DNA of 64,000 bases from an uncultured virus (IMG/VR IMGVR_UViG_3300030085_002899). Lineage: Duplodnaviria > Heunggongvirae > Uroviricota > Caudoviricetes. The stretch spans positions 1 through 64,000 of the IMG/VR virus record IMGVR_UViG_3300030085_002899; one strand, written 5' to 3'. Positions 2,376 through 49,127 of the stretch are shown here, piece by piece. The first letter of the stretch is position 1; the number at the start of each line of letters is the position of its first letter. A program made the translations under genes and the position numbers. The notes under the pieces are model-generated. The model did not search any database. It was given only the letters and a program-made list of their open reading frames with translations, and was not told the DNA's origin.

Positions 2376-5300
2376 ATGAGTAACGGAGTAGGTTCACCTA
2401 AAGACGATATTAAAAAATACGATGTAGATTTTTTAAAGCCTAAAACCCCACCTGTTCAAATAGATACTACTGGCGCAGAGAAATCTGACGCTTTTGGTTT
2501 ATTTGGCACTGGGTATACAGAAGCTGAAAAACAAGCCGAACAAAATTATATTGAGCAATTAAATAATAAAGCTCCTATAGATTATGATATGAGCTTAGTT
2601 GAAAAAGGTGCTCGTTCTTTTGTTGCAGGTATAGGTGACTTAATAAATGGTATGGGTGATGCTGTAGACTTTATTAGTGGCACACCTAATCAAGACTATA
2701 TTTCAGGAGCTTCTGAGCTATCAAAAGATATATATGGTGTTGATACTACTAAAACTATTTCTAGCTACTTCTCCGAAGCATTTCACACTGCAGGTAAAGA
2801 ATTACAATCTGTAGGTGACCCAGTAGCTGAATTAGGTGATGTAGAAAACATTACTTGGAATGATATGTTTGATGTAGACTTTTGGTTTACACATGCAGCA
2901 AGAGCTATACCTTTTACTTTATCATTTTTCGTTCCAGGTATGGCAGGGGCTAAAGCTGGTCAATTAGCATACAAAGGACTGTCCTTACTCAATAAAGGTA
3001 AAAGCGTAGGAAGAGCTATGCAATCAATAGGTCTTGTTAAACACATGCATCAAGGTTCAAAATTTGCACAAGGTGCGGCTAGTTTTGCAGGAGGTGCAGC
3101 ACTTGGTAATATGAGTGAAGGCGCTATTATTGCAGGTCAAGTATATAATGACGCTCTTAAAGAAGGAATGACTGAAAAGCAAGCGTCAGTAGCTGCTCAT
3201 GATACTTTTATAGATAACATGAAGTGGATGGCTGTAGATGGCCTACAATTAGGTTTTGTTACTGGGGGTAATAGATTTCTTAAATCTGTTTTACCTAAAG
3301 GAGCGCAAAATTCATTATCACTTAACTTTACTAAAGCACCAGGAATAAAGTCAGTTATTAACAATATGGCTAAAGTTACTGGTATTGTTCTTACAGATGG
3401 TATGTTAGAGCAGTTTCAAGAAACATTCCAAGATTGGTCTAGCAAAAAGAACTTAGCAGAACAGCGTGGTGAAGAGTTTATGTCATACATGGACTTCTTT
3501 TCAAGTAAAGAAAATTTACCTACTAGAGTTATTGCTTTTGCATCTTCTATGGCTGTATCAGGAGCTAAAACTGCTATAGATGTTTCTGCTGAAAGAAAAA
3601 GACTATTCAGTCTTGAAAAAGGTTTCGATGAAGAATTTTTATTTCAAGATGTTGAGCAGTTTGATTTAACAGAAAAAGAATTAGGTAAAACTCCTACAGG
3701 TCAAGTTAGAGCTACATCTGGAAAATCTGTGCAAGAGCTTAAATCTCTTAAAATCAGACAATTAGATAAGCTTTTGGTTAAGAAAGTTCTTGAGGGTAAA
3801 GGTGATTACTATGTAGATTTAGTTAATCACTTACTTGAAGAAAATAAAATTACACAATCTCAACATGATTCATTTGTAAATACTGCAAAAGAAATGGAAT
3901 CATTAGTTGAGTCTACACCAACTATCGGTCTGAATGAACAAGAAAAAGCTAGAATTATTTTAGCTACACGTCAGAAAAATAAAAATAATGCAATTATTGA
4001 AAGTCAACTTGAAGCTTTAAATCAAGAAAAAGAAAAGATTAAAAGTCAAGACCTAGAAGCTGATGTTGAAGCTCAAATGATTGCAGGTGTAGAAGAAGCT
4101 ATTGCAGAAGTTAAGTCAGGAGATATTACTTTATTAGATGAAGATAACAATCCCTTACTTGACGACAATGGTAATGAAAAAACTGCTCGAAGAGAAAATA
4201 CTGTACACGAACAAACAATTAAACAAGTTTATGCTGAAGCAACTGCTAGACGTGAAAGTGAACGAGCAGATAAAGATGTTCGACCTAGAGTAGCACAAAT
4301 TATAGAAAAACAAAATGCAGGTCAAGAACTAACTGACGAAGAGCAATCATTTATAGATAATAAAGCAAATAAGCCTTATTACGAAGAAATGGTAAAATCT
4401 GATAAGCTACAAAAAGCTCAAGATGTTGCAGGTCAAGACTTTACTATAGATGATGAAACAGATATAGAAAACGAAAAGTACGTATTCAAAAAAATTGAAG
4501 GTGATAAAGTTACAACTAGAGTTGTTGACGCTCAAGGTAATTTTACTGAAACTATTGTAACTGACGAAACAATAAGTGAAGATAGTACAAAAGAAGCTGA
4601 AGAAGAAAGTAAAAATTCTGTAGATAACAGAGAGCAAGAAAACGAAGTAGATAAAGATGTAACAGGTAAAGAAGATAGCGTTAAGGACACTTCATCTGTA
4701 ACTGGTGCAGAAGATACAAAACAACCAAAAGTAAACTCAGAAGAAAAAATTAGTGCAGCTAAAGAGCGATTAGGTAACAAGCTTTATGGAGGACAAATGG
4801 AAGTTTGGGCTGATGAACAAATGGAAGCTAATCCTACTACTGCTATATTTTTTGATGAAAGTCTTATAGATGATTTTGGTAAGCCTGCTATTGGTATGGC
4901 TCTCGGATTAACTAAATTTATTAATCCACTAACCATGACTCAAGAAGTATTTCATCATGAGAATTGGCATATATATCAAAATATGTACCAAGATACTGCT
5001 GAAATGCAAGCTTTACTTGAAGGTATTGTTAGTCAACCAATATTCGAACAAACAAAGTTAAAGTACTATACAGAAATAGATATTGAATATAAAGGTCGTA
5101 AACTAAAATTTCATGATTTAATAGGCTCTAAAAAAAGTGGAGTAATTACTATTAAAGAATGGATGTTAGAAAATGGTATAGTTGGAGACTCGCCAACCGA
5201 TGCAAATACAAGAGCATATTTGTTTGATATGGAAACTATTATGGGCTCGCAAGGTTATAATATGCTTTCTGATAACAAACAAACTGATTTAAAAAATGAA

Positions 5301-8300
5301 GCTCTTGCAGTAGCTGGTGGTTTACAAAGTACTATAACATCTCCTTATTGGACTACAGAAGCTAAAAAGCCTAATAGTAAAATAAGAACCTTGTTAACAA
5401 ATGCATGGTCAAGAATAAAAAAAGGAACTAATGAAGAGGTAGCAAACAAATTACTTTCAAGTCATTTCCCAGCTTATTACAACTCTGACTATGCTACTAT
5501 GTTGGAGTCATTCCAAAGAGCTTCTAGGCAGAACGAAAACCCTATATCTTGGAGTACATATACCAAAAGTAAGGGAATGTTCCTTAAAGATAATTCTGCT
5601 GTAGAAAAACATCGAGTTATTTCAGCTGACCTTTCTATTGATTTAGCTATAGTACAAAGTAGTATTATAGAACAAGAAGCTCAAAAAATTGCAGATGAAT
5701 TAAATGAAGGTTTATCTATAGAAGAAATAGGTAAGCGTTCAGCTGCTATATTTGAATCTAAAAAACAAGACTTAATTTTTGAAATTAAAAAACTAGCTAA
5801 ACTTAATAATACAAAAAATAGTGAAGCTATAGAAAGAAGATTTCAAAAAAGAGCTAAAATTATAGATGCTAACATTAAGAAAGAAATTATAAAAAATGTT
5901 ACATCTAAAGTTGTTCGTGAAACTAGTCAATTAGATTTATTTCAAGAAACAATATCTGAAGAAGATTTAACTTTAAGTTTTGGTAATTTATTAAATGATG
6001 CGTTTAAAAGAGGAACAAATACAAAAGTTACTGAGTTTTTACGAGACTTTACTGCATTATATAATAAAAATAAATCTAAAGAAGATGCTGTAATAACTAA
6101 ATCTAAAGTAGAAACTGTTATTGCTCAATATCTTGATGGTAATAGAAACAACTATGATAACTTTGAAATGGCAGTTAAACTTGCTATTGCAAATGTTTCA
6201 GACTCTACTCAATCTACAAGCTCAGAAAAAATTATAAAAGAGTTTGTAAGTTTTGTAAATAGTAAACTTAAATCACCTGGTGAAAATCTAGACACTTCTA
6301 TAAATAACATTTGGCAATACTTTAGGTCATTTAGACACGAACAAGTATTCCAATTTGATGTGACTGAAAATGGTGAAGTAATGATTTCAGAGTCATTACC
6401 TAGACATACTAATATTCAAATAAGTGGTGCTATACAAAAGTATAGAGAAACACTTATAAATGAAAATGGTAAAATTATTAGTCTAGCATACGCACTAGAA
6501 AGAATGAAAGACCCTGCAAACAGAAAGCTAGGTTTACTTTCATTAATAAACACAATAATACCTTCAAGCACACTATTAAAAGATAGCAATTTACAATTTA
6601 AGCTCGAAGATATAGACTCAATGAAAATAGCAGGTATGCCTGCACTTGAGTATTTTACTGAAGAGCGTATTAACGTATTACTATCTAATTTAATAACTAT
6701 AGATTGGGGTCAACATATAGAAAACCAAAATAAATACTACGAAGATAATGATGTAGTGTTTGAATCAGAAGCTGCTCTTATACGAAAAGATATAAATGCA
6801 ATACTTAAAAGAACTCGTGTAGGTCAACAATATCAAGAAAAAGCAATTATTGCAAAAAATAAACTTGAATCTGGTCAAATTTTAACTCCTGAAGAACAAA
6901 CAGCTTACGAAAGATATTTATCAGCAGTAAAAGTTTTAAGAAGTAATTACGAGTCTTATAAAGCTAATCCTAGAGAAAAATCATTTTATAAAACAAATAT
7001 ATTTGTTAGCAAACCTATAGAAAATGGATACCCTAAAAGAATGGGTGGTACAATAACATCTATACTAAACGAAACAGGTGAAAACTTTATAAAAGAATTA
7101 TTACGTTCTGTAATACTAAGTAAGAATACAAGAACTCTTATGGGTCAGGTACGTAACCCTGAAAATGAAGCTATAGGTACTTTTAATAAAACTTCTTATT
7201 TATATAACAATACTGAAAACTTAGAGTCTTTATTTAAGAAAATGAAGTTAGATACAGAAGGTAATTACCCTTCTCGTTTACAGTATTTGTTTGGAGTTAA
7301 TCCTTACGCTTATATGATGTTTGAATCAGTGTATAATCAAACACTATTAAACAATAATAATATAAGTGATAGAGCAGGTTCATGGAGTCCTGAAATAGGA
7401 TACATGTCTGGATATTACGATGGTCGTAATAAGAAAGGGTTTAAAAACTCTAGAATGAACCCTAAGACTATAAAGCATATTAGATTTATGCATATAGTTG
7501 ATTCTATTAAAAATAAATCTAAGCAATACAAACACTTTGTAGGTGTATTCGGTGATTCACAGCGTCAATATTTTATCAATAACGCTATGATATTTGATGC
7601 AGAATCATTAGAAGAAAATGTAAATACTGTACGTATAAAGTCAAGAGATAAAGTTAATATGCAAGAACAAATTCAAATTTTATTTGATGAATTGTTTGCA
7701 GCAAAACTTGTTAAAAAAAGTGACTTTAAATTTGTAGAGCAAGCTTATAAACAAAACTACGTTAATAAGTTTTTTATACAAGATTTATATTTTAATAAAT
7801 CTGCTGCGATGAAGGACGCTAAAATGTTAGCTGACTTACCTAAGCGTATGAAGGGTATATCTTCACCTCTTGCTCCTATGTCAGACGTAAGAATATTACC
7901 TATAATCGTAAAAGATGATGAGTTAAAAACAGAGTTACAAAAACTACAAATTGCAGACTCAGAGTCTTTTATATTACCTGAACATCAAAAACTTTTATCT
8001 TTACAATATGGAGAGCTAAACGAAGTTGGTAATAATCTTAAGTCCTTATACTATGGACAAAACTTAGATAATACAGCTTTTGAAGCGCATATAGGAAGAC
8101 CAAGAGTGCCATTATACTTTAAAACAGCTACTAAAATTCTTGAAGAACAATTTGCTGAAAAAAGTAAAATCTTTAGAGCATTACGTGAAGTTCTTAATGA
8201 AACCACAAGAAGACATAAAGGTGAAGCTGTTATTCCTGTTTTATATTTTGACTCATCTATTAAAGGTGGTATGTCAAGTACTGAACTTGCAAGTATAACG

Positions 8301-11300
8301 CACAGTGTTGAAGATATTATAGATGCTTCAAATGATATATACTTTTTAAATAAACAAAAAGGCGATAATACTGATTCTTCTTACGAACAATTGGTAGAAG
8401 AAGGAAAAGTAAAAAGTTTAAAGAAGTTTATAGATAATCAAAATAAATGGTATCAATTTGAATCTGAGCCAGGAGTAATACAAACTGGTTTTGATGGCGC
8501 TAACTTTGGTATACAAACTGTTTTAGATAATACTAATAAGACTGGTATTTTAGCTAAACAAATGATTGCAAACTTAAATGTATTTAATACAATTGAAAAC
8601 GTATCATCTGGCGCAAATAAAGGTAAAAGTGGTTATGAAATGCTTGAGCCTATTAAAAAGCTATTAGCTGAAATATTAGAACTACAGTATGCTAATTTCT
8701 TTGAAGGTGCAAATTTTGAAACTAAGTTTAATGATAACCAAGATAGGCTTAAATCATTTGTAGACTCAGAGTTAGTAAAAGAATTAGGAGCATCATTTGC
8801 TGGTAATGAACAAGCATTTAATGATGTTGTAGCATCATTGTTTAAGTCGCAAGTTATGCGATTAGAAACAAACGGTACTTTTTCTGTTGAGATGTCTGAT
8901 ATAGGATACAATCTTCAAGTAAATGAAGAAGGAGTTTCTTATTCAGAAGAATTAAAATCATATAAATTAGAAAATGGTAAGGTTACTTATGGTGAAGTAG
9001 TTATGCCGTTTATCGCTAGACAAAGAGGTTACAAGGTAGGAGACAAAGTTTTAGTTTCTCGTATACCACACTCAAAGCCTGGTGATGGTATAGTAATGAC
9101 TATTAAAGAGTTTAATTCTTCTAAAGCTGGTAACACTATTATAATACCAACTGAGCATGCTAGTCTAATAGGTTCAGATAAAGATGGTGATGGTCTGCAT
9201 GTAAACATGAAAGCGCTAGGCGATAACTTATCGGTTATTGATGAAAAGAAAAATCAATTTTTAGATGCTATGTTTGATATGTATACTTCTCCAGAAGTAT
9301 ATAGCATTATTATGCAGCCTGTAGACTTTACTAAAACTATACGTGATGCAGGTTTAAATCACATTGAAACAATAGACACTGTTGACTCAAACGAGTTTAA
9401 AAGAGTTAAAAGTGATTTACATATTAATGATGAGTTTGCTATACAAGATAGATTCTTAGGCAACTTTATAGGTATTGCTGCTTCTATGAATAGAACAGTA
9501 AACTACTTTGCTTCAAGTGGGTTACAAAATGATTTAGCTACAGAAGTTAGAGTCAGAGTAAAAGGTAAGTCTGCTCCATTAAATATAACTCTTAAAGATA
9601 AATCTGGTAGAATTAATAGCATTAATAGGCTAACTAATAAAACAGGTAAAAACACGCATTGGTTAACTTATGCTCAATACTTAAACTTTATTATAGATGA
9701 TGGTAAAGCTGGAGATAGAGCTAAGTTTAATATTACTAAAGAAAGTGCTAGTCATTTTTCTTACTTACTTAGAACAGGTATGCCTATACAAGGCGTACTT
9801 GATTTAATGTATCATCCTAACTATGTTTCCTATATACAAAATAGAGCAGATGGATTAAGTAAACGTGAATCTATAGCTAAAACTTTTAACACAAAAGTAA
9901 GTCAATTACCAGTTGTTGTTATGGATATGCCTGGACAAATCGATTTATCGAAAAGCATAAATACTAAAATGTTTATGCAGCTTATAGGAGCTTTAGATTT
10001 AATTACATCTGATTTACAAGTAATTTCAGACATAACTAATTTAGATACAAAAATGCCTAAAAACATGATTGAGCTAGTTAGTCTTGAAAATCGTTTCAAT
10101 GATGTAATGAACAGACAAACTAGTATTTCTAGAAGGTTTGATTCTGACCCATATTTAAAGTCTCATAAGACATTATTATCTAGATATAAAGAAAAACTTA
10201 ATGAAACTTCTACTGTATCAGCACAAGAAGCAGAAGTACTTATAGAGTCTATCAAATCAACTATTGACTTAAACAACGAAACTGCTTCTGAGCTGATTAA
10301 CAACGCTATTAGTTTTTATAAAATATCTACAGAATTAAAACCTAATTTTGAAGGGAAAAGTTTTCACAACCTGTATTTAGATTTATTAAATAGCAGATAT
10401 AATGAATACTCTACTCAACTAGATAAAATGAATTCAGACCATTCAAATAATAATTTAGGTTTGGATTTATCTGAGTATTCTATTCTTAGAGTTCATGAGT
10501 TAGCTTCTAAAAAGATTGTTAACCTTAAAGAAGAAGGTTCAAATAAATTTATAAACGCATTACAATCTAACTTTACTAAGCTAACTAGGAAGCAGGGCAG
10601 AAGGTCTGTAAGTCATCAGATTAACAGATACTTTATACCATATGAAACTACTGACAATATTTTAACTAAAGAAGATTTAAAAACTTACAAGGATGCTTTT
10701 ATGGAGCTACCTAAAGAATTAAGAAACTTCTTTATAGGTTATGAATATTTTGTCAATAAATTAGGTATAGGCACTAATAATACTTTGATGCCGTTTTTAC
10801 CTAAACAAGTTTTATCTGAAATAAAAAGAGCTAATAAAAAAGTTAAAGATAACACACAAGTAGAAGTAACTCCTGGTGTGTTTGAGCGAAAAAACACTGT
10901 TATACAAGAATTGTTGGCTTTAAAGAATAATTCTGGTCAAGTGCTTAATAAAAAAGGTGAACGTATAAATCTTAATCTTATTTCAGAAAAAGCTTCTATA
11001 AGACATAACCAAGCTATATTTGCTTTAACTACAAACTTAGTAGAGCTAATGATAGGATACAATCCTGTACAATTTTCTAGTGTACTTAGTGATGCACCTT
11101 TGTATATGTACAATCAATTTAAGCTGCATTTAAGCGAAGATATTATTACATCTAAGTTCAATAGAGCAGACTCTAAGTCACTTAAAGGTGCTAAAGGTAA
11201 AATGAGATTTACTAATGAATTTTATCAAACATTAAATTCAAAAATAGCATACAATAAAAAAGGAGAACCTATTGTAAGTTCAGAATATAATATTCTTGCA

Positions 11301-14300
11301 GATAGAGATTGGACAGAGTTAAACACTCTTAATATGTATGCTGAATCATTAGATACTGATGTAACAGTTGTTAAGTCTAAAGCTAATGGAAGTATGTTCT
11401 TAAGAGATAATACTCCATCAGAACTCATGTTTGGTCAAGAAGAAAATTTAAGTGAAACTGCATTTGCTTTAAGATTTGGCTACATTAAAGGTGGCACTAC
11501 TTTGGAGACTTTAGAAATGACAAAAGCTTCACAGTACGAAAAATTTAAAGGAGATTATGCGCATTATCGTGCAGGATATGCAGAGGTCGAAGGTAAAAAT
11601 GGTATAAAACAAAAGTTTCTAAATGATACAAGGTTACAAATGCCTGATGCACCTTTTGAACAAATACCAAATGATTATTACATTAACGCTAGAAAAGCTA
11701 TAAATGAATATCAATCAAGTTTAATAAATACACATCCATTAGCTAAAGCAAAATTAATGGAATCGTTATATTATAAGTATGGCGAAATAATTGCTCAAAC
11801 ACAAAATCAAAGATGGAGAAATACTGTAGCTCCAGATGGTGAAAGAGTTGGTGAATATTTATTAAATCAAGTAAATCAAGAAAAATACGATAAAGATATT
11901 TCTTGGGCTGCTATGGTATTAAGTCCTGGTGATTTTGGTCAACATAATCCTACGCTATCAGGTGTTAGAAGGAATTTAGAAGTGTCTAATGCTAAAATGC
12001 ATAGAGACCTTAAAATTATACAAGACGAATTAAATAATGCTTATAACGCTTTGTTTAAAGAAAAGTATGGTATATTAAAAACACCAGCAAAACTTATAAG
12101 TAATTTACCTTTAATAAGAGCTGCGCATCCATTACAAAAAATTTCTGAAAACTTATTTGAAAATTTGCAAACGCAAAAAACTTCACTATATAAGAAAAAA
12201 GGAAAATGGAAAGCTAAATATACAACTGAGCTAAATAGGACTATATTTAATAAAGATAATAGTTTGAAAGCTGATGCTAAAAAATTCTTAAGTAAAGCAG
12301 AATACAATTACGCAAGAGTTATTAGTACGTATACTCAGTTCTACAATGATTTACTTAAAGTAGAAAAAGGAGCAGACTTCCAAGATAGAAGTTTTTATAG
12401 ACCTCTTGTTACTGCAAGTAGATTTGAAGTTTTAAGACACAGAGGTATATATGGTTTATATAAGAAATCTTTATCTAAAGATAATTTATATCATAACATT
12501 ATGATTGAAGCGTATGACCCTTTTAGCACTAAACCTGGTGGTATGGAAATTAGGTCATATGCTGAGTTTAAAGCATTGTATAGTATTTCTAAAGAAGAAG
12601 CTAAAGCATATTCAGACTCTCAAACAGTATACACTGGAGAACTTGATTCTTTTGGTAAACCAATTAGGTCTACTATAAAAGTTGACTTAGAATTTTTCAC
12701 ACAAAAAAATAGAATACAGGCATTAAAAAAAGCTAAAAGTACTGCTCAGCAACATATGCTTAAAATGCGTGATGCTTTAGGAAATCCAGTAGTTCCACAT
12801 GATGAGGTGTCTTCTACTGTATCTGCAGAAAATGAAACATTCAATAGATATACATCTAGGCGTTCTGAGACTGCAGCATATTTTGCTTCTAATAATTTAC
12901 ATCATGCAATGTTTGAATACCTTAAAACTATGGTATTTCAGTATGGTACAGCATATAGAGGTGACAAGCAAAAAGTGTATAGAATAAACTTTGAGTTAGC
13001 TTCAGATGACTTGTATGGTAAAAAAGCTAAAATTTCAAGCTACGACAAACAAGGAATGAGTGTTAGTATGTTTGAAAATTTAGAAAAACAAGGAAAGCGT
13101 CAAAACTTTGAAGGATTTGAAAGACAAAAATTTATGGTAAATGCTGCTAAAAGTTATTTACAACATAATGGAGGTCAAACAAAATCTATAAAGTATCTTA
13201 ATGATGTTGTTTTAGATAGATTTATATTAAGAAAACCAAAAAAATTAATAACCGATAGTGAATATGAAAGAAAAATATTAGACACTCTTACTAGATGGAC
13301 AATGGTTGTTGGTTTAGGTTTTAATATTCCAGCATCTGTAGCCAATGTAGTAATAGGTAAATATAATGCATATAGGTCTCAAGGCTTCCAAGGTTTTGTC
13401 AAAGCACATGCAAGAGTATTTGGTGTAGATAAACTTGGTAAGTTTGATAGAAGAGCTGCAACTAAAGCGCAAAAAATGCTTGAAGAGTTTGGTATACTAA
13501 CTTATAGACCACAAGACCAACTTGAAGGTGCTGGCTTCAATACTATAATGGATAATATACTTTTCTATCCAATGGTAACTGCAGAAAAATTTATTCAACG
13601 TGCTCAGTTTATGGGTGAGCTTTCTGATGAACAATGGAATGCGTATGACTTGGATAAAGACGGTAACTTAATAGTAGTAGACAGACAAAATGTTTTAAGT
13701 ACTGAACAAGTTGCTAGATATGCTAGAAGAGTTCAAAACGTTCAAGGTAGAGGTTATTCAGAAGTTGACCAACGACTTATTCAAACTTATGCACTTGGAA
13801 GTACAATTTTACAATTCAAAAGATGGTTGCCTACTTATATTGTAGATAGATTTGGTAAAGGTGGATATGAATCTTATATAGATGACTTTGGTAATGTATA
13901 TAGAGGTACTACGCCTGCAGTTTTAAAAAATTTAAAATTATATGCTAATCCTTTAAAGTATTCGCAAAATAAAGCAAAGCTAGATAAAGGTACAAGAGAA
14001 GCTATTGAAAGATACCATAGAGGAATATTTGTTCCTTTGTTTTTAGGACTATTTTTACTTGCAGGTTCTGAAGATGATAAAGACATAAATGATGAACTGA
14101 AAAAATATGGTTTAGATTTAGAAAAAACTGTTGGTGATATGCTTTTAGTAGGTAACGTTCCTCAATTTAAACATACTTTAACAGTACCTGCATTTGCTAC
14201 TGCACAAAATTTATTAGGATTAATATACTCATTTTCTATGTATGTTGCTGGCTCGCCAAGTGCTGTATATAGTAGAGATGCTAAATATGGTAAAGCAGGC

Positions 14301-14456
14301 GAAACTAAAGCAAAAAGATATTTAGCTTCATTAATGCCTAAACTACAAATACCAGGAACTGAAATTAGTGCTAGGGAATCTATATTTGGTAGAGTAGATA
14401 CAAGAGGAAGAAAAAGAAAACGCACACGTAGAACGAAAAGAAACAGTAGAAGATAA
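2376..14456 (+). CDS. Giant virion protein (4026 aa): hydrophobic N-terminal region, zincin-like protease domain, crAss-type two-barrel virion RNA polymerase, C-terminal domain
   Basis: HENWH (HExxH) at aa 861-865 (nt 4956-4970) with a downstream NEALA. RIP at aa 2229 is followed by GSDKDGD (DxDxD, nt 9177-9191), as in the beta'-type catalytic DPBB. The context is a crAss-like genome. Confidence 0.85.
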   Translation: MSNGVGSPKDDIKKYDVDFLKPKTPPVQIDTTGAEKSDAFGLFGTGYTEAEKQAEQNYIEQLNNKAPIDYDMSLVEKGARSFVAGIGDLINGMGDAVDFISGTPNQDYISGASELSKDIYGVDTTKTISSYFSEAFHTAGKELQSVGDPVAELGDVENITWNDMFDVDFWFTHAARAIPFTLSFFVPGMAGAKAGQLAYKGLSLLNKGKSVGRAMQSIGLVKHMHQGSKFAQGAASFAGGAALGNMSEGAIIAGQVYNDALKEGMTEKQASVAAHDTFIDNMKWMAVDGLQLGFVTGGNRFLKSVLPKGAQNSLSLNFTKAPGIKSVINNMAKVTGIVLTDGMLEQFQETFQDWSSKKNLAEQRGEEFMSYMDFFSSKENLPTRVIAFASSMAVSGAKTAIDVSAERKRLFSLEKGFDEEFLFQDVEQFDLTEKELGKTPTGQVRATSGKSVQELKSLKIRQLDKLLVKKVLEGKGDYYVDLVNHLLEENKITQSQHDSFVNTAKEMESLVESTPTIGLNEQEKARIILATRQKNKNNAIIESQLEALNQEKEKIKSQDLEADVEAQMIAGVEEAIAEVKSGDITLLDEDNNPLLDDNGNEKTARRENTVHEQTIKQVYAEATARRESERADKDVRPRVAQIIEKQNAGQELTDEEQSFIDNKANKPYYEEMVKSDKLQKAQDVAGQDFTIDDETDIENEKYVFKKIEGDKVTTRVVDAQGNFTETIVTDETISEDSTKEAEEESKNSVDNREQENEVDKDVTGKEDSVKDTSSVTGAEDTKQPKVNSEEKISAAKERLGNKLYGGQMEVWADEQMEANPTTAIFFDESLIDDFGKPAIGMALGLTKFINPLTMTQEVFHHENWHIYQNMYQDTAEMQALLEGIVSQPIFEQTKLKYYTEIDIEYKGRKLKFHDLIGSKKSGVITIKEWMLENGIVGDSPTDANTRAYLFDMETIMGSQGYNMLSDNKQTDLKNEALAVAGGLQSTITSPYWTTEAKKPNSKIRTLLTNAWSRIKKGTNEEVANKLLSSHFPAYYNSDYATMLESFQRASRQNENPISWSTYTKSKGMFLKDNSAVEKHRVISADLSIDLAIVQSSIIEQEAQKIADELNEGLSIEEIGKRSAAIFESKKQDLIFEIKKLAKLNNTKNSEAIERRFQKRAKIIDANIKKEIIKNVTSKVVRETSQLDLFQETISEEDLTLSFGNLLNDAFKRGTNTKVTEFLRDFTALYNKNKSKEDAVITKSKVETVIAQYLDGNRNNYDNFEMAVKLAIANVSDSTQSTSSEKIIKEFVSFVNSKLKSPGENLDTSINNIWQYFRSFRHEQVFQFDVTENGEVMISESLPRHTNIQISGAIQKYRETLINENGKIISLAYALERMKDPANRKLGLLSLINTIIPSSTLLKDSNLQFKLEDIDSMKIAGMPALEYFTEERINVLLSNLITIDWGQHIENQNKYYEDNDVVFESEAALIRKDINAILKRTRVGQQYQEKAIIAKNKLESGQILTPEEQTAYERYLSAVKVLRSNYESYKANPREKSFYKTNIFVSKPIENGYPKRMGGTITSILNETGENFIKELLRSVILSKNTRTLMGQVRNPENEAIGTFNKTSYLYNNTENLESLFKKMKLDTEGNYPSRLQYLFGVNPYAYMMFESVYNQTLLNNNNISDRAGSWSPEIGYMSGYYDGRNKKGFKNSRMNPKTIKHIRFMHIVDSIKNKSKQYKHFVGVFGDSQRQYFINNAMIFDAESLEENVNTVRIKSRDKVNMQEQIQILFDELFAAKLVKKSDFKFVEQAYKQNYVNKFFIQDLYFNKSAAMKDAKMLADLPKRMKGISSPLAPMSDVRILPIIVKDDELKTELQKLQIADSESFILPEHQKLLSLQYGELNEVGNNLKSLYYGQNLDNTAFEAHIGRPRVPLYFKTATKILEEQFAEKSKIFRALREVLNETTRRHKGEAVIPVLYFDSSIKGGMSSTELASITHSVEDIIDASNDIYFLNKQKGDNTDSSYEQLVEEGKVKSLKKFIDNQNKWYQFESEPGVIQTGFDGANFGIQTVLDNTNKTGILAKQMIANLNVFNTIENVSSGANKGKSGYEMLEPIKKLLAEILELQYANFFEGANFETKFNDNQDRLKSFVDSELVKELGASFAGNEQAFNDVVASLFKSQVMRLETNGTFSVEMSDIGYNLQVNEEGVSYSEELKSYKLENGKVTYGEVVMPFIARQRGYKVGDKVLVSRIPHSKPGDGIVMTIKEFNSSKAGNTIIIPTEHASLIGSDKDGDGLHVNMKALGDNLSVIDEKKNQFLDAMFDMYTSPEVYSIIMQPVDFTKTIRDAGLNHIETIDTVDSNEFKRVKSDLHINDEFAIQDRFLGNFIGIAASMNRTVNYFASSGLQNDLATEVRVRVKGKSAPLNITLKDKSGRINSINRLTNKTGKNTHWLTYAQYLNFIIDDGKAGDRAKFNITKESASHFSYLLRTGMPIQGVLDLMYHPNYVSYIQNRADGLSKRESIAKTFNTKVSQLPVVVMDMPGQIDLSKSINTKMFMQLIGALDLITSDLQVISDITNLDTKMPKNMIELVSLENRFNDVMNRQTSISRRFDSDPYLKSHKTLLSRYKEKLNETSTVSAQEAEVLIESIKSTIDLNNETASELINNAISFYKISTELKPNFEGKSFHNLYLDLLNSRYNEYSTQLDKMNSDHSNNNLGLDLSEYSILRVHELASKKIVNLKEEGSNKFINALQSNFTKLTRKQGRRSVSHQINRYFIPYETTDNILTKEDLKTYKDAFMELPKELRNFFIGYEYFVNKLGIGTNNTLMPFLPKQVLSEIKRANKKVKDNTQVEVTPGVFERKNTVIQELLALKNNSGQVLNKKGERINLNLISEKASIRHNQAIFALTTNLVELMIGYNPVQFSSVLSDAPLYMYNQFKLHLSEDIITSKFNRADSKSLKGAKGKMRFTNEFYQTLNSKIAYNKKGEPIVSSEYNILADRDWTELNTLNMYAESLDTDVTVVKSKANGSMFLRDNTPSELMFGQEENLSETAFALRFGYIKGGTTLETLEMTKASQYEKFKGDYAHYRAGYAEVEGKNGIKQKFLNDTRLQMPDAPFEQIPNDYYINARKAINEYQSSLINTHPLAKAKLMESLYYKYGEIIAQTQNQRWRNTVAPDGERVGEYLLNQVNQEKYDKDISWAAMVLSPGDFGQHNPTLSGVRRNLEVSNAKMHRDLKIIQDELNNAYNALFKEKYGILKTPAKLISNLPLIRAAHPLQKISENLFENLQTQKTSLYKKKGKWKAKYTTELNRTIFNKDNSLKADAKKFLSKAEYNYARVISTYTQFYNDLLKVEKGADFQDRSFYRPLVTASRFEVLRHRGIYGLYKKSLSKDNLYHNIMIEAYDPFSTKPGGMEIRSYAEFKALYSISKEEAKAYSDSQTVYTGELDSFGKPIRSTIKVDLEFFTQKNRIQALKKAKSTAQQHMLKMRDALGNPVVPHDEVSSTVSAENETFNRYTSRRSETAAYFASNNLHHAMFEYLKTMVFQYGTAYRGDKQKVYRINFELASDDLYGKKAKISSYDKQGMSVSMFENLEKQGKRQNFEGFERQKFMVNAAKSYLQHNGGQTKSIKYLNDVVLDRFILRKPKKLITDSEYERKILDTLTRWTMVVGLGFNIPASVANVVIGKYNAYRSQGFQGFVKAHARVFGVDKLGKFDRRAATKAQKMLEEFGILTYRPQDQLEGAGFNTIMDNILFYPMVTAEKFIQRAQFMGELSDEQWNAYDLDKDGNLIVVDRQNVLSTEQVARYARRVQNVQGRGYSEVDQRLIQTYALGSTILQFKRWLPTYIVDRFGKGGYESYIDDFGNVYRGTTPAVLKNLKLYANPLKYSQNKAKLDKGTREAIERYHRGIFVPLFLGLFLLAGSEDDKDINDELKKYGLDLEKTVGDMLLVGNVPQFKHTLTVPAFATAQNLLGLIYSFSMYVAGSPSAVYSRDAKYGKAGETKAKRYLASLMPKLQIPGTEISARESIFGRVDTRGRKRKRTRRTKRNSRR

Positions 14457-26794: not shown

Positions 26795-26918
26795 TAAAAA
26801 GAAAAACGAAGAAATTGCAGAATCGCAATGGGAGTCATGGATTGTTGATTTAGAAGAGCAAGAACAACCAGAGGCGTGTAGTATTGATGATGATAACTGT
26901 GAAAACTGTGGTTCATAA
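26787..26918 (+). CDS. Small acidic 43-aa peptide ending ACSIDDDNCENCGS, missing from the ORF track
   Basis: Fills the gap, overlapping both the upstream stop and the downstream ATG (TAATG); C-x6-CxxC terminus. Confidence 0.6.
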   Translation: MNDKKKNEEIAESQWESWIVDLEEQEQPEACSIDDDNCENCGS

Positions 26919-30763: not shown

Positions 30764-31095
30764 AAAATTTAATATTTTTATTATTAATACCTTGCATAAG
30801 TTTTGCCCAGGACTTTTCTGATGGTTTAGTTGTTGTTCATTTTAATGCTAGTTTTAATAGTGCAAACGAAGTTTCTTGGATAACAAACTTAACAGACTGT
30901 GAAGTAGAAAAAGTAGATATTGCAGCAGACCCTAGATGGTCTTCTGAATATAAAATAGTTGTAGTTCCTACTATAGTAGTCTTTAATAATAACGAAGAAG
31001 TAAAAAGGTTTCAGGCAAATATTATGATGACTATGGAAGCTACAAAAAAAGAAGTGCAAACTTCTATAGACGAAATAATTATGGAAGCATTTTAA
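30760..31095 (+). CDS. Exported thioredoxin-fold protein lacking CxxC
   Basis: VVVHFNASFN in place of F.A.WCxxC; KVDI...YKIVVVPTIVVF...EVKRF cis-Pro region; signal peptide. Confidence 0.65.
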   Translation: MKNLIFLLLIPCISFAQDFSDGLVVVHFNASFNSANEVSWITNLTDCEVEKVDIAADPRWSSEYKIVVVPTIVVFNNNEEVKRFQANIMMTMEATKKEVQTSIDEIIMEAF

Positions 31096-43849: not shown

Positions 43850-43992
43850 AACTTAATGGTATTATCTATTATACACTTAAGTTCTTCAATATCAGGACTT
43901 TTTCCTTTACGACTCTCAAGGTTTTCTACAGCTTGAGATAACTCATTAGCAAATTCTGAATCTGCGCAGAGTATAAGTAGTTTTTCTAACAT
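43831..43992 (-). CDS. Small hypothetical protein, 53 aa, missing from the ORF track
   Basis: MLEKLLILCADSEFANELSQAVENLESRKGKSPDIEELKCIIDNTIKLCQQIP; fills the gap. Confidence 0.5.
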   Translation of the reverse strand: MLEKLLILCADSEFANELSQAVENLESRKGKSPDIEELKCIIDNTIKLCQQIP

Positions 43993-43993
43993 A

Positions 43994-44929
43994 TTACACG
44001 TAAATTTCTTGTTCGACTAAATCTAAAAACATTTGTATTTTTTCTATATCTTTTTCGTCAATAGAATTAAACTCTTTCATGTTTTTAAACATTTCATTAA
44101 CTGATTCAAATCCTTGTGACATACAGTTATAATAATCTTCAGTATAAGGTTCAGGTAAACTATTTGTATCTAGTACGTTAAAAGACCTATTCCATGTATT
44201 CTCTTCTGCTTCAGTCCACGAAGATTTGATTGAAGCCGTACCGTTTCCCATGTAATCTCCATACTCGTACCAATTTTTGCTATTAACTTTCGTTATAGCT
44301 GTAACAGGTATTTTAACAGAGTCAACAAGCTCACCAGTAGGAGAGTATATAAATAACTTATCCTTAGTTACTTCTTTAACTTTATTTTCGTCAAATAAAA
44401 TATCTAAACATTCACGTCTTGAACTAAAGTATATACCAGTTTCATCTCTGTATCTAAACAAAGGATTATTTCTACGATATACATAAAGTTGACCATCGCT
44501 TTGAGTAAATACAGCGTTAATTGTACCACCAAAAGAACCTAAAGTAGCATAGTCATCAGTCTTTTTAAGTACGCTATATATTGCTTTTGAATCAACATCT
44601 ACGTCATCTAACTCGTGGTCAAATAAAACATCTTCAAAATTGTCTAACACACCATTGTGTACACCAACGTATTTACCGTAAGTATAAGGGTGTGTGTTCT
44701 CAGCGGTTTTAGCACCATGAGTTCCATACCTAGTATGACCTATAAACAATTGTGATTTTGTTTCATCCATTAATGATAAAAGGTTAGGAGAGTCATCTAA
44801 GCATTTGTATATTTTTCCATCTGTATACAAACCAGCTGAGTGTCCGCCTCTATTATCATTGTCGTGCATCATAAACATTAATTTGTTCATGTTAGCACCT
44901 TCTCCTATATATGCAACTATTCCACACAT
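43994..44929 (-). CDS. Class II (Ntn) glutamine amidotransferase
   Basis: MCGIV N-terminal Cys, RG..SAG, GHTRY.THG, NTHP, HNG, VDS. Confidence 0.92.
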   Translation of the reverse strand: MCGIVAYIGEGANMNKLMFMMHDNDNRGGHSAGLYTDGKIYKCLDDSPNLLSLMDETKSQLFIGHTRYGTHGAKTAENTHPYTYGKYVGVHNGVLDNFEDVLFDHELDDVDVDSKAIYSVLKKTDDYATLGSFGGTINAVFTQSDGQLYVYRRNNPLFRYRDETGIYFSSRRECLDILFDENKVKEVTKDKLFIYSPTGELVDSVKIPVTAITKVNSKNWYEYGDYMGNGTASIKSSWTEAEENTWNRSFNVLDTNSLPEPYTEDYYNCMSQGFESVNEMFKNMKEFNSIDEKDIEKIQMFLDLVEQEIYV

Positions 44930-45147
44930 TTCTTTTTACTTTTAATAGTTTTTGATTTATTTTTTTGAGAGTATTGAGTTATAAATTCATTTTCTTCGTC
45001 AGAAATTAACTCATTTTCTGCGAGTGAACGAAGTTTAAGTTCTTCTTCGTATTGTTCATCTTGTACTTCATAGTATTTGGCATCATATAAAGAGTCAAGA
45101 GCTATGCGCTCTTGCTCTTCAATGAATTTGTCTTTCATTCTACCCAT
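44917..45147 (-). CDS. Small acidic hypothetical protein
   Basis: MGRMKDKFIEEQE start; fits the operon. Confidence 0.6.
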   Translation of the reverse strand: MGRMKDKFIEEQERIALDSLYDAKYYEVQDEQYEEELKLRSLAENELISDEENEFITQYSQKNKSKTIKSKKKCVE

Positions 45148-45152
45148 GGCTA

Positions 45153-45593
45153 CTATTCTTCCAAGACAAATTTTGGTAAACCATTAGTACCGATATACAT
45201 ACCAGAAGCTTTAAAGGTTATCTTAGCACCTTTCCAAGTTACTGTATACTCAACTTGATTGTCTTCAAATTTCTGTTCAAAAACATTATCATCAATTTGA
45301 AGCATGCTAAGCTGCTTATTATCAGTAGTTTCTCCGCTATCTTCAGCAAAATAAAAACCTTCATTAGGTTGTGTATTTTCCATAGCTTTGTTAACAATAG
45401 CATTACTCTTTGTATCAATGTTATGAGTCTTACGTATCTTACTTAACTTGTTTTCAATCGCATGTCTTGTGCGTCCAAGTCTAGCAGCAAGCTCATCATT
45501 TGATAAGTGCATATTATTAATTAAAAATTGTACGTGTTCTACCGACCAAGGTAGACGTGTGATTCTTTTAGGCGTAGTTCTTTTAGTAGCCAT
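45153..45593 (-). CDS. Early protein with N-terminal HTH (Myb-like W.....L......S..ELA..LGRT..AI)
   Basis: PWSVEHVQFL...SNDELAARLGRTRHAIENKL; start taken at ATG 45593. Confidence 0.6.
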   Translation of the reverse strand: MATKRTTPKRITRLPWSVEHVQFLINNMHLSNDELAARLGRTRHAIENKLSKIRKTHNIDTKSNAIVNKAMENTQPNEGFYFAEDSGETTDNKQLSMLQIDDNVFEQKFEDNQVEYTVTWKGAKITFKASGMYIGTNGLPKFVLEE

Positions 45594-45653
45594 AATAAAA
45601 AAATTAAAGGTATATTGTGTATTGTATTTTATAGTTAGCAACACAACTTAACT

Positions 45654-45674
45654 AACTGTAGGGGAAGAAGAAAA
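45654..45674 (-). promoter_or_regulatory. Repeated motif TTTTCTTCTTC-N5-CAGTT, candidate virion-RNAP early promoter, copy 3
   Basis: Plus strand AACTG-TAGGG-GAAGAAGAAAA; same spacing in all three intergenic copies. Confidence 0.6.
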
Positions 45675-45678
45675 TCAA

Positions 45679-45846
45679 CTAATTAGTATAGAACATAAGA
45701 GCTCTTAACTTGATTATAAATTGAGAGTGTGTTATATACTCTTCTTCATATTCTTTTAGTAAATTTCTTACTTGCATTAATTTAGATTCCATAGCGTTTA
45801 TTCTAGCGCTCATGTAATTCATATTTTCGTTATTATACTCAGGCAT
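45679..45846 (-). CDS. Small hypothetical protein, 55 aa, missing from the ORF track
   Basis: MPEYNNENMNYMSARINAMESKLMQVRNLLKEYEEEYITHSQFIIKLRALMFYTN. Confidence 0.5.
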   Translation of the reverse strand: MPEYNNENMNYMSARINAMESKLMQVRNLLKEYEEEYITHSQFIIKLRALMFYTN

Positions 45847-45964
45847 AACATGTGTATTTAATTAAAAGCCAATAGGCAGAGCCGTTAAGCTCCACCATTG
45901 ACACTGACTTTGCCTAGCACCCCTGCTAGGACTTTTCACTTTATGCAGCACTCACGCAGCTTGC

Positions 45965-46168
45965 TCATCGTTCTAACTTTTTAAGTTTAGCTTCAAGTTT
46001 TTTCATTTGTTTAGTACCTAAACTTCTGTGAGGTTCTTGCATGTAATCTCTTATACCTCTTGCAGTACTAATTTGTTCTTGATACGCAGCGTTGCGTTCA
46101 ATAGCTTGCTCTCTGCGAAGCTCTTCACGTTCTTTACGTGGTAATACTAATCCAGCCATAGCTTTCAA
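45965..46168 (-). CDS. Small charged helical early protein
   Basis: MAGLVLPRKEREELRREQAIERN... coiled coil; start probably at the internal ATG. Confidence 0.55.
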   Translation of the reverse strand: MKAMAGLVLPRKEREELRREQAIERNAAYQEQISTARGIRDYMQEPHRSLGTKQMKKLEAKLKKLER

Positions 46169-46194
46169 TTTAGTTTAGTTAATGAATAAAAAAA

Positions 46195-46282
46195 ATAAGC
46201 AGGCTCATATATTGCCACAGGAATTTCACCTGTTTGGGCTATATGATACCCAAATGGTTTTTACATCAAGCTACCTGCTTAT
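46195..46282 (-). ncRNA. Structured RNA element of unknown class
   Basis: Closing stem AUAAGCAGG/CCUGCUUAU with inner UUUGGG/CCCAAA and ACAGG/CCUGU stems, followed by a U-tract. Confidence 0.45.
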
Positions 46283-46567
46283 ATAGTCTTTCCTATTAGT
46301 CACCACACAACACTTATTGTTCCTAGAGGTTGCTTTCTTGGGTGCTTACGGTGCATCATACCGCCCATCTTGGCCAACAGATGAGGTTGTTAATACATGT
46401 TGATAAATTGCAATCTCTTAAATATAAATACATTACATAAGAAACTACCACGCATCCACTTGACTATTAAAATTAAAAGTTGTAACTTCGAATCAAAATG
46501 TCGTAAGCCTCTACGCATTACTGCTCAATCTCCTAAATAGAGCAGAATCCCAAATCAGAAGAAAAGG

Positions 46568-46588
46568 AACTGAATGGGAAGAAGAAAA
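46568..46588 (-). promoter_or_regulatory. Repeated motif TTTTCTTCTTC-N5-CAGTT, candidate early promoter, copy 2
   Basis: Plus strand AACTG-AATGG-GAAGAAGAAAA. Confidence 0.6.
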
Positions 46589-46718
46589 AACAACCCACAT
46601 ACTACTCAGTATCAAGTACTTAGCGCAAGCACAACGCAAGTCTATCGACCAAAACAACCTAAAGGTAGCCGATATAGGCGTGTAGGGTGTAGTTCACACA
46701 CACACTCAAATACAGAAA

Positions 46719-46757
46719 ACTACTGGGTATTTACTGCAGTACTACTGGGTATTTACT
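46719..46757. repeat. 17-bp direct repeat ACTACTGGGTATTTACT x2 (22-bp period)
   Basis: Exact copies at 46719-46735 and 46741-46757. Confidence 0.85.
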
Positions 46758-46770
46758 AGATGATAGTGAG

Positions 46771-46795
46771 AAAAGGTGCACCCGAAGGCACACCT
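46771..46795 (-). terminator. Intrinsic terminator after the first early gene
   Basis: AGGUGUGCC-UUCG-GGUGCACCU followed by UUUCUC. Confidence 0.7.
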
Positions 46796-46811
46796 GCTCA
46801 GTAGTTAGGTT

Positions 46812-47594
46812 CTAGAAGTCTATGTCCTCTTCAGAGCTAACGACAGCGTCTATCTCGTCAAGAGACTTAACTTTGTTAGCAACTTTAGGCTTACTCTTCG
46901 TACCCGACTTAGACATGATGTAAGTCTTACCTCTATTAGAAGTAAGTTTACAGTCTAGAGTCACACCCGACAATTCCTTGAGGTCAAATCCTTTCTCTTG
47001 AAACCACACTAAAAGCGTTTCGCTTGTGTGTTGCACAATGTTTAGGATAAGACCTGGAATCTTGTAAGGACGTACGTTGTCTTTACTACTAGGGTCAAAC
47101 TTATCAGGGTTAGATAAATCCTCCATACTCAAACCTGTTTCACTTTCAATGTAAGTAAATAAGTTTGGGTGAAGCATTTCATCATCATCCTCAATAAGTC
47201 TTAGACCACGAAGACAAGCTATTGCTTTACGCAAAGCACCACTACCTATAGAAGGCATAGCACCCTCTGTAGTAAGCGTCACAACTCTGTCTGGTTGACC
47301 CTCTACACCGATAGTAGAAAGGTCAGGAAAGAACCACGTTACAAACACTTTCCCTTGGGAAGGCTTGCACTTAACAAACTCAACCTTGTGTACTTTTTCA
47401 GCACCACAATATTCAGGATGTTCGGCTTTCTCCAAACGAACATGAGAGTAGTTGCCTACGTTAGCTTGACGATATTTGTCAAACCACCCGTAAGGCTTTA
47501 CGCTTGTAGTTGATGACAACTCACTTGCAGAATGCCCTGCACTAGCTTGTTCCTTAGAACCTAACATACCATTAACTTTAGATAATAAATCCAT
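46812..47594 (-). CDS. First early gene; hypothetical, possibly ssDNA-binding protein
   Basis: 260 aa with a basic linker then an acidic-aromatic tail SEEDIDF; has its own motif copy and terminator. Confidence 0.6.
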   Translation of the reverse strand: MDLLSKVNGMLGSKEQASAGHSASELSSTTSVKPYGWFDKYRQANVGNYSHVRLEKAEHPEYCGAEKVHKVEFVKCKPSQGKVFVTWFFPDLSTIGVEGQPDRVVTLTTEGAMPSIGSGALRKAIACLRGLRLIEDDDEMLHPNLFTYIESETGLSMEDLSNPDKFDPSSKDNVRPYKIPGLILNIVQHTSETLLVWFQEKGFDLKELSGVTLDCKLTSNRGKTYIMSKSGTKSKPKVANKVKSLDEIDAVVSSEEDIDF

Positions 47595-47654
47595 AACGTC
47601 AATAATATTAAATCCATTAACTTAAACCCTAATGGTTGGGTTGCTACTTAGTGT

Positions 47655-47675
47655 AGCTGTTGTTGAAGAAGAAAA
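47655..47675 (-). promoter_or_regulatory. Repeated motif TTTTCTTCTTC-N5-CAGCT, candidate early promoter, copy 1
   Basis: Plus strand AGCTG-TTGTT-GAAGAAGAAAA. Confidence 0.6.
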
Positions 47676-47777
47676 CTCTCCGTCACAATTACGGGGTGGG
47701 TGTACAAAATTTGGAGGTAGTAGGGGCAGTATACTATAAGACAATCGCACTCACAAAAACATAAAAAATTTTTTCAG

Positions 47778-47785
47778 TATATTTG
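47778..47785 (+). promoter_or_regulatory. TAnnTTTG -7 element heading the late strand
   Basis: TATATTTG ending 22 nt before ATG 47807. Confidence 0.55.
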
Positions 47786-47806
47786 AAAAATAATAAAAAA
47801 AAAATT

Positions 47807-48007
47807 ATGCCTGGTAAATCAAAAAAAACTACAAAAGTTAAACCTTTATTAAGTAAAGGTAGTAATACACGTAAATTTCTAGATACAGCAGTGTCAGTTA
47901 TAGGTGGACCAGCTGTTATGGCTTATAAAGGTTTAAAGAATGTCCAAAAGAAACGTAAAGCCTCTGGAATGGTTAAGAAAAGAGGTGGTTTAATACAACA
48001 CGATTAA
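47807..48007 (+). CDS. Small basic protein (MPGK...KKRGGLIQHD)
   Basis: Lys-rich; termini shared with the next gene. Confidence 0.6.
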   Translation: MPGKSKKTTKVKPLLSKGSNTRKFLDTAVSVIGGPAVMAYKGLKNVQKKRKASGMVKKRGGLIQHD

Positions 48008-48008
48008 T

Positions 48009-48230
48009 ATGCCAGGTAAAAATAAAACAGCAGCAGCTTTCAAGAAAGCAGGCCCAGGACAAAGAAAAAAAATTATGGAAGACCCATTGTATGGAAAAGG
48101 GTCTGGTAGTGGTACTATAAGTAAGAGCAAAGGTTTTAATTTTACTAGTTTGTTAAGTGAGAGGCTTAAAAAGAAAGCACAAAGTTTAATGAAAATGAAA
48201 AAAGGTGGTTCTTTGAATCAATACGATTAG
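48009..48230 (+). CDS. Small basic protein (MPGK...MKKGGSLNQYD)
   Basis: Lys-rich; termini shared with the previous gene. Confidence 0.6.
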   Translation: MPGKNKTAAAFKKAGPGQRKKIMEDPLYGKGSGSGTISKSKGFNFTSLLSERLKKKAQSLMKMKKGGSLNQYD

Positions 48231-48275
48231 GATTTAATAATTGCTTTACATATAATATGTTTGTTTGGTTGAATT

Positions 48276-48303
48276 AGGGTAGCTTTCGGGTTACCCTTTT
48301 TTT
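48276..48303 (+). terminator. Intrinsic terminator
   Basis: AGGGUAGCU-UUCG-GGUUACCCU followed by a U-tract. Confidence 0.8.
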
Positions 48304-48306
48304 GTA

Positions 48307-48314
48307 TATATTTG
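48307..48314 (+). promoter_or_regulatory. TAnnTTTG -7 element
   Basis: TATATTTG right after the terminator, ATG at 48319. Confidence 0.55.
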
Positions 48315-48318
48315 TATT

Positions 48319-48603
48319 ATGACAAGAAGTAAGTTTGGAATTGTTCGTGAAAGCAAGGACGGAACTATTAAAGGTTACGTTGACATGGGCGAAAAATATT
48401 TTTGTTACAACGAAATAGATGTATTTGATAGTTATTTAGATATGGGCTATAGTGTTGTAAACAATTGTTATGTTATGGTTGGTGGAAATAGGACTACTTA
48501 TTTATATAGGTATCGTACAGAGCATGGTGAAAAGGTCGAAGAAAGTGTAGACGAATTCACTCACCCAACTATGATGATGGTAACGGAGCTAAAAGTAAAT
48601 TAA
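48319..48603 (+). CDS. Hypothetical protein
   Basis: 94-aa ORF at the head of the terminase operon. Confidence 0.6.
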   Translation: MTRSKFGIVRESKDGTIKGYVDMGEKYFCYNEIDVFDSYLDMGYSVVNNCYVMVGGNRTTYLYRYRTEHGEKVEESVDEFTHPTMMMVTELKVN

Positions 48604-49127
48604 TGTACTTAGTAAATTTAGACAAGACAGGTAAAGTCATTATGGATGACTCAATTTATGCTGTCGAAGAATTCAGAGAAGTTTTAGAAACAAAAACACT
48701 TGGAAACAAAGGTATGCTTTGGGTGGCTTTGTATTGTGACTACGACAGTATCTACAGACATTTTACTGAATCTGAAAGAAGCAGAGCAATAAGTAGTGAA
48801 GTTTTTAAAGATTACGATTGGAAGGGTCAAAAAAATAAAAAAATTGCTAACGCAATTAAAAAATATAAAGAGTTACAATTTGACCCCTTAGATGCTCAGC
48901 TACGAGCTTTCAACGAAAAGATAAATGAGTATACCACATTACTTAAAACTGTTACCATAACAGAAGAAAACGCTAATGAAATGCAAAAGGTAATGATTGG
49001 TATAGATAAAATATTATCTACAAGACAAAAATTACTTGACGCAATAGAGCGAAGAGGTCAGCGTACTAAAATATCTGGTGATGCTGAAATGAACTACCTA
49101 GAAAAGAAACAGTCTTACAGTGGGTAA
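48603..49127 (+). CDS. Conserved protein upstream of TerL, candidate terminase small subunit
   Basis: Helical; directly overlaps TerL; DYDSIY...ER pattern. Confidence 0.5.
   Translation: MYLVNLDKTGKVIMDDSIYAVEEFREVLETKTLGNKGMLWVALYCDYDSIYRHFTESERSRAISSEVFKDYDWKGQKNKKIANAIKKYKELQFDPLDAQLRAFNEKINEYTTLLKTVTITEENANEMQKVMIGIDKILSTRQKLLDAIERRGQRTKISGDAEMNYLEKKQSYSG

Follow-up and report, generated by a model that had tools for sequence, protein, structure and literature searches.

A bipartite sequence motif present in three copies in the window (the whole stretch of phage DNA analyzed here, 64,000 nucleotides of a 66,539 bp record) is probably the early promoter of an injected two-barrel RNA polymerase, acting alone or with a co-injected partner, and we place the probability of this reading at roughly 0.78. 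The motif, TTTTCTTCTTC-N5-CAG, would present an 11-base block at -17 to -7 and direct transcription from the purine of a C-A/G step. This reading comes from sequence comparison, since the motif is fixed in strand, is confined to the early arm with its first copy at the early/late junction, and is replaced together with the polymerase while the host promoter box stays unchanged. An earlier note on this DNA had proposed the motif to be the recognition sequence of the RNA polymerase of a 4026-aa protein, and the comparisons below support this as the probable assignment. The copies are as follows.

Site A: 47657..47675, minus strand; copy where the early and late arms meet, in front of the first early gene; +1 proposed at 47658.
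Site B: 46570..46588, minus strand; after the terminator of the first early gene, pointing into non-coding sequence that is conserved; +1 proposed at 46571.
Site C: 45656..45674, minus strand; heading a long replication operon; proposed +1 at 45657.

An exact pattern scan located these three copies, the spacer always 5 nt long as had been claimed, and no copy occurred in any of 100 dinucleotide shuffles (expectation from base composition, 0.001 copies). The exhaustive scan of the whole 66,539-bp record also agreed with the earlier note that there is no fourth copy; the 11-base core alone was found at the same three places only, with equal spacing to the CAG in each. When two mismatches were allowed one extra site appeared, at 30893 and antisense in a late gene, which is within chance as four sites or more were also found in 2 of 100 shuffles. 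A profile built from the three copies scored 32–36 bits at its own sites and 18.7 bits at the next-best site in the genome. All three copies lie on the strand of the replication-gene arm and face that arm, with none elsewhere, which counts for the promoter reading. Their non-coding nature holds with respect to real genes: a 61-aa plus-strand ORF overlaps the middle copy, and its ATG is gone in the related loci L233, L234, L235 and L237. In the window genome (G000) and its relatives the motifs are repeated, oriented, non-coding and restricted to genes presumed to be expressed first. The 14 fixed bases were also matched in at least 117 stretches in a scan of viral contigs. Among the matches listed, 112 of 117 were in long open frames, 102 were on the strand reading as Glu/Lys codons, and the two multi-copy loci were both tandem repeats; for these reasons the 14 bases cannot serve as a diagnostic by themselves when taken out of context.

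The phage is crAss-like: TerL and capsid match those of crAss-like phages best (27–30% identity), the muzzle protein matches Pfam crAss_MUZ (E 1e-122), and terminase, portal, capsid and muzzle are all of the crAss type that marks Crassvirales. No close cultured relative was found. A virion-arm protein encoded at 26918–29083 has a C-terminal type IX secretion sorting domain (Pfam E 1e-11), supporting a Bacteroidota host. The minus arm, from 47594 to about 35000, encodes a helicase, Sak4, SSB, RusA/resolvase, an exonuclease, an amidoligase, a glutamine amidotransferase and GGCT. Because this content resembles the replicative module of phage phi14:2, which is early in that phage, the minus arm is presumed by analogy to be the early class. 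The amidoligase and glutamine amidotransferase pair (42383–44929) is common to the relatives G001–G003. The plus arm begins 130 nt from the first motif copy, and the first late genes (47807–48230) encode short, very basic peptides that are variable among relatives. Among the minus-strand genes behind motif copies are these two.

First early gene: 46812..47594, minus strand; encodes 260 aa with an acidic tail.
Helix-turn-helix gene: 45153..45593, minus strand; directly downstream of site C, with weak helix-turn-helix matches.

The product of the first early gene belongs to no Pfam or PHROG family; eight homologues were found, and a scan of genome contigs returned no relative. Its structure model is of low confidence, with a best fold match (Z 4.1) too weak to be informative, and the protein is possibly an OB-fold single-strand binding protein.

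The putative reader of the motif has its gene in the virion arm, where it follows that of the muzzle protein on the circular map.

Two-barrel RNA polymerase: 2376..14456, plus strand; 4026-aa virion protein with R2229-x-P2231, G2266-S-D-K-D-G-D2272 and HExxH at 861.

By sequence this protein matched nothing in PDB, PHROG or Pfam, and by tblastn its best match was at E 0.09, to crAss001-type polymerases. The R-x-P and G-S-D-K-D-G-D (2266–2272) motifs showed no variation in alignments of 14 and of 25 homologues; the catalytic motif is DKDGD, and the DFDxD form is absent. Residues 1701–2600 were modeled with a pLDDT of 83.4, and the top Foldseek match of the model was phi14:2 gp66 (6VR4, E 3.1e-19, TM 0.59), followed by QDE-1. 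The fold thus settled what sequence searches had left without a match: the model, with a catalytic DxDxD in a double-psi barrel and a gp66-like fold, confirms the protein as a two-barrel RNA polymerase of phi14:2 type, and the claim that the 4026-aa protein carries an RNA polymerase is borne out by both motif and fold. A protease part is described adjacent to or fused with gp66 homologues in the available text of a preprint (bioRxiv 10.1101/2020.03.07.982082), and the HExxH at 861 fits this description. By analogy, the polymerase would be packaged and injected.

Site A stands back to back with a promoter of host type on the opposite strand, and a further conserved element lies between them.

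TAnnTTTG host-type box: 47778..47785, plus strand; 21 nt before the ATG at 47807 of the first late gene.
C-run/TTTTG/C-run box: 47692..47728, no strand assigned; between the late promoter and site A, with invariant columns in seven loci.

The second of these is possibly a genome end or packaging site; the window genome has no terminal repeat, so the genome end was not located. TAnnTTTG is the sigma-A box of Flavobacteria (PMC9723704), and all 22 junction loci compared, 18 of them distinct, carried it 15–30 nt ahead of their first late ORF. In six records it preceded 30 of 86 gap-preceded late ORFs versus 9 of 75 early ones, against a background of 3–9%. The earlier statement that plus-strand operons carry this box stands for 4 of 18 gap-preceded late ORFs of the window, the first late gene included. 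No TAnnTTTG was found on the minus strand near any motif copy, the three genes that follow the motifs have none in the adjoining 80 nt, and a sigma-70 scan gave 62 sites versus 61.5 in shuffles. A promoter for an alternative sigma factor that differs among hosts would be one way to explain the motif, as Flavobacteria possess sigma-54 and several ECF factors (PMC9723704). This we regard as very unlikely, because the signal spans 19–21 bases with nothing conserved further upstream, has none of the CGT box described for ECF promoters (PMC9723704), and differs between phages that share the sigma-A box.

Conservation of the motif among close relatives was followed in nine metagenome loci carrying the first early gene, three of them near-identical to the window and one (L238) a repeat of L120. 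At site A, L231 and L233–L236 had an intact 11-mer and CAG and L237 a one-base difference, with varied spacer and upstream flank; the distance from site A to the upstream box ranged from 8 to 46 nt across relatives. At site B the CAG is changed to CGG in L233–L235 and to CGA in L237. L231 and L233 retain site C; the remaining contigs stop short of it. Within this lineage the C of the proposed start never varies and is followed by a purine (A or G) in every case. An identical offset of two copies from the downstream ATG had also been noted, and is true of the window, where the A of CAG is 64 nt from the ATG at both sites, but it is not conserved in relatives: the distance from site A to the ATG in the window and six relatives is 64, 64, 70, 76, 71, 77 and 73 nt. 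With 70–77 nt in five of the six relatives, equal offset was rejected as a constraint, and on these sequences the shared 63-nt value of the window is a coincidence.

Two of the proposed transcripts could fold at their 5' ends, and the first gene is followed by a terminator-like element.

Short hairpin: 47643..47657, minus strand; 5' end of the proposed site-A transcript, whose 68-nt leader folds with z -2.42.
Weak seven-pair hairpin: 45633..45657, minus strand; 5' end of the proposed site-C transcript, no better than shuffles (z +0.80).
Hairpin and T-run, then the reverse complement of TGATAGTGA: 46761..46799, minus strand; after the first early gene, and the same in G001, G002 and G003.

In L234 two pairs of the site-A hairpin are altered on both sides and the loop is variable, a score equaled in 38 of 500 shuffles; in L233 the site-C hairpin retains its stem with a changed loop. 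A 5' hairpin as part of the signal was rejected, being weak or absent in most of the 14 copies of G001, G002 and L124. The hairpin that had been reported after the CAG is present at two of three copies, but other lineages do not have it as a component of the signal; at site A it is real but local. Strict orientation and these paired changes would fit equally well with an RNA-level signal, in which the motif is a processing or antitermination site within one long early transcript and the resulting 5' ends are protected by hairpins. Such a role is improbable, because site A is the first element past the junction with indels directly upstream, and because a host RNA factor would hold the sequence constant, whereas the motif varies by lineage. 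In L124, L126 and L128 each gene is preceded by a copy that directly follows a terminator-like hairpin, an arrangement that fits restarting of transcription. Early cassettes in these loci are closed by a hairpin followed by TAGTGATAGTGA (L124:415,748; L126:7642,7994; L128:7123,7543,8013), and the same 9-mer, inverted, follows the first gene's terminator in the window genome and G001–G003. The hairpin plus 9-mer is a candidate sequence-specific terminator; a conserved terminator motif is reported for phage P23-45 in the available text of bioRxiv 10.1101/2022.12.01.518664.

Early regions of more distant relatives revealed lineage-specific repeats on the early strand. The repeat search covered 19 of 80 terminase loci, each showing the junction, plus the window, giving 20 early regions, of which 18 contained a repeat scoring at least 5 above the best of three crude shuffles. 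Against the promoter reading, L141 and L142 had no clear repeat and in some regions the best repeat was terminator-like. Five relatives were scanned over their whole records: G001 has six copies of a AACTCTCT-type motif and G002 five of a GAGTCTTTT-type motif; G003 has four copies of a hairpin-linked type, one cut by a contig end, with a weaker fifth; G006 and G007 have five and six top-ranked AT-rich copies, respectively. All are on the early strand, and nearly all are intergenic and within the first 4 kb. A looser form of the G003 pattern also matched three coding places, where the stem is absent. At 27, 344, 65341 and 65889 of G003:C1 (L134–L136) the repeat carries a hairpin with a C-TANC-G loop, both sides of the stem changing between copies; most of the stem is missing from the fifth copy, at 64259, the orthologous site B. 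In leave-one-out scans of whole records the held-out copy was outranked by training copies alone in 21 of 22 cases, and no profile exceeded 19 bits in foreign genomes, compared with 28–44 bits at its own training sites; it counts against these figures that the training sites were chosen by patterns written after the copies had been seen.

Replacement of the motif runs in step with divergence of the polymerase. Identity of the polymerase core to that of the window is 63% for P0001, 39% for G001, 38% for G002, 23% for G003 and 20–21% for G006/G007, the terminase identities in the same order being 93, 83, 83, 72 and 64–65%. P0001 falls in the L137/L120 type (98.9% identity across 1071 aa; the DNA of L137 and L120 is 99.6% identical), which keeps the motif, site A having one change. 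Where core identity is under 40%, a private repeat takes the motif's place at the same sites and on the same strand. Within the G001/G002 and G006/G007 pairs the cores are 57% identical each, and the motifs differ while their make-up is loosely similar. The sequence thus tracks the phage polymerase and not the host promoter, although over seven polymerase-motif pairs only, and this co-change does not single out the polymerase, since all fast-evolving phage proteins diverge together. Regulator proteins could likewise shift specificity by lineage, and a helix-turn-helix gene lies directly downstream of site C, so that the motif might be an operator or activator site bound by a freshly synthesized DNA-binding protein of the phage, such as this one, working with the host polymerase. 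We consider this unlikely: by tblastn a homologue of the helix-turn-helix gene was found in G003 only, while G001, G002, G006 and G007, where there is none, show the same layout of sites; the motif is non-palindromic and strictly oriented, with no host box nearby to repress or activate; and an activator would first have to be expressed from the very operon that it activates.

Further support for a promoter read by a phage-encoded protein comes from the fixed register at site B and the stretch behind it.

CTATTTA at +31 and an AT-rich 14-mer, present once, at +141, both counted from site B: 46417..46540, minus strand; at conserved distances from the site.

The motifs of the window genome, G001, G002 and L124 end in C-A/G about 17–19 bases after the start of the block. 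The proposed-start CA is present in five of six copies in G001, its absence from the remaining copy counting against the proposed start. From the proposed +1 at site B the distance to CTATTTA is 29–31 nt, and to the 14-mer 139–142 nt, in eight of eight sequences carrying three motif types; G001 and G002, with their other motifs, agree to within 2 nt. This fixed register across motif types indicates that site B is orthologous and that each lineage rewrote it together with its remaining copies; this points to a reader encoded by the phage. Transcription starts follow a pyrimidine/purine rule. With the purine taken as +1 the block occupies -17 to -7, which is also the extent of the T7 binding region as given in the available part of PMC4496689. 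The 14-mer occurs once per genome in the window genome, G001 and G002 and is absent in G003, G006 and G007. The stretch itself is a candidate replication origin or non-coding RNA, and no DNA polymerase or primase was found among the scanned proteins; a search of 44000–49000 against Rfam gave no match at the curated threshold, the single match (E 0.82) being far under its gathering score. The adjacency of site B to this AT-rich stretch, together with variation in the number and content of early cassettes among relatives, would suit replication iterons or recombination points for cassette swaps with no transcription role. Yet neighboring copies, placed ahead of genes, are separated by about 1 kb and do not form a tight array, recombination does not need a free 5-base spacer of fixed length, and the scanned proteins include no recombinase or integrase, making this explanation highly improbable. 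The motif may nevertheless have a secondary role in cassette exchange.

Phage-specific early promoters have been described previously for T7 and N4 and, in the class of two-barrel virion enzymes, for P23-45. In the open literature, mostly the opening parts of abstracts and, for phi14:2, parts of the preprint text, no early promoter for crAss-type polymerases was found; the available parts of PMC8375218 and PMC11502894 held nothing on phage early promoters. Phage phi14:2 resembles the window phage in polymerase fold, in a giant virion protein with an HExxH part, in a replicative arm divergent from the capsid arm and in host-type promoters for later genes, but differs in its catalytic DFDID (DKDGD in the window) and in having no common early motif where the window has a clear repeat. 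According to the available text of bioRxiv 10.1101/2020.03.07.982082, its early class, the replicative module, is rifampicin-resistant. The same text reports that the early transcripts share no upstream motif, a point absent from the earlier note, and that gp66 transcribed only single-stranded or denatured DNA in vitro; both count against the promoter reading, gp66 being the single polymerase of its type studied so far. The same repeat search applied to three windows of the phi14:2 early region gave nothing above shuffles, in agreement with the reported motif-free gp66 transcripts. At the crAss001 junction no repeat rose above shuffles, and hits in two further windows were local near-duplications. 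Conversely, the cultured Flavobacterium phage Fpv3 (NC_031904, L243/L244) has the layout of the window and encodes a 4287-aa protein with R-T-P and DYDID. An 18-base repeat lies on its minus (early) strand at 338, 79/88387, 87870 and 83772, with its first copy at the junction. As the record ends overlap, 79 and 88387 count as a single site, giving four distinct places. There is an additional degenerate copy at 455, and none elsewhere in the 88 kb at three mismatches. In cr10_1 (NC_055875, L247, Suoliviridae) a three-copy, roughly 35-base early-strand repeat lies within 1.6 kb of the junction, with its first copy at the junction, and is a weaker candidate (score 59.4 versus 48–49).

As far as the available text of bioRxiv 10.1101/2022.12.01.518664 goes, P23-45 gp96 is likewise a virion polymerase of the two-barrel kind, and a phage-specific motif recurs upstream of transcription starts near the first-entering genes. 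It differs in being fused to the tail tape measure, in belonging to another polymerase clade (Foldseek matched the window polymerase to gp96 at E 7e-4 and to gp66 at E 3e-19) and in a motif common to relatives, whereas that of the window is replaced lineage by lineage. T7-type promoters (-17 to +6), as described in the accessible part of PMC4496689, resemble the window motif in a specificity block at about -17 to -5, a short initiation element and a sequence particular to each phage lineage; the T7 polymerase, however, is an unrelated single-subunit right-hand enzyme that is not injected, and in the window the spacer is free and the register is deduced. The three N4 early promoters, P1–P3, also lie near one end and serve an injected giant polymerase, but according to the same excerpt (PMC4496689) they are template-strand hairpins centered at -11. 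The 19-base motif and its upstream flanks share no inverted repeat of this kind, the window's hairpins being downstream.

Under the favored reading of the motif as an early promoter, the 11-base pyrimidine block at about -17 to -7 would give specificity when bound by the polymerase, with five free bases next, and transcription would begin with the purine that follows the invariant C (47658, 46571 and 45657). Site A would drive the first early gene, site B would restart transcription after that gene's terminator and read across the conserved AT-rich stretch, and site C would drive the replication operon; late genes would rely on the host sigma-A box on the opposite strand. A wider proposal, offered tentatively and with the odds leaning against it as a whole, is that many crAss-like phages outside the phi14:2/crAss001 family use compact, linear, T7-sized promoters (a -17 block and a C/purine start) read by a two-barrel polymerase related to eukaryotic RNA-interference polymerases. 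In every lineage all copies would be rewritten in step with the enzyme to give a natural set of mutually orthogonal polymerase-promoter pairs, and the middle promoter would fire, from a fixed distance, into an AT-rich origin to trigger replication.

The motif sites provide exact templates and predicted start bases for a crAss-type polymerase, and the existence of several polymerase-motif pairs makes the recognition domain mappable by swaps. As Fpv3 is cultured and has its own repeat in the same layout, the promoter idea is testable, and polymerase-promoter pairs from crAss-like phages could yield new orthogonal transcription systems.
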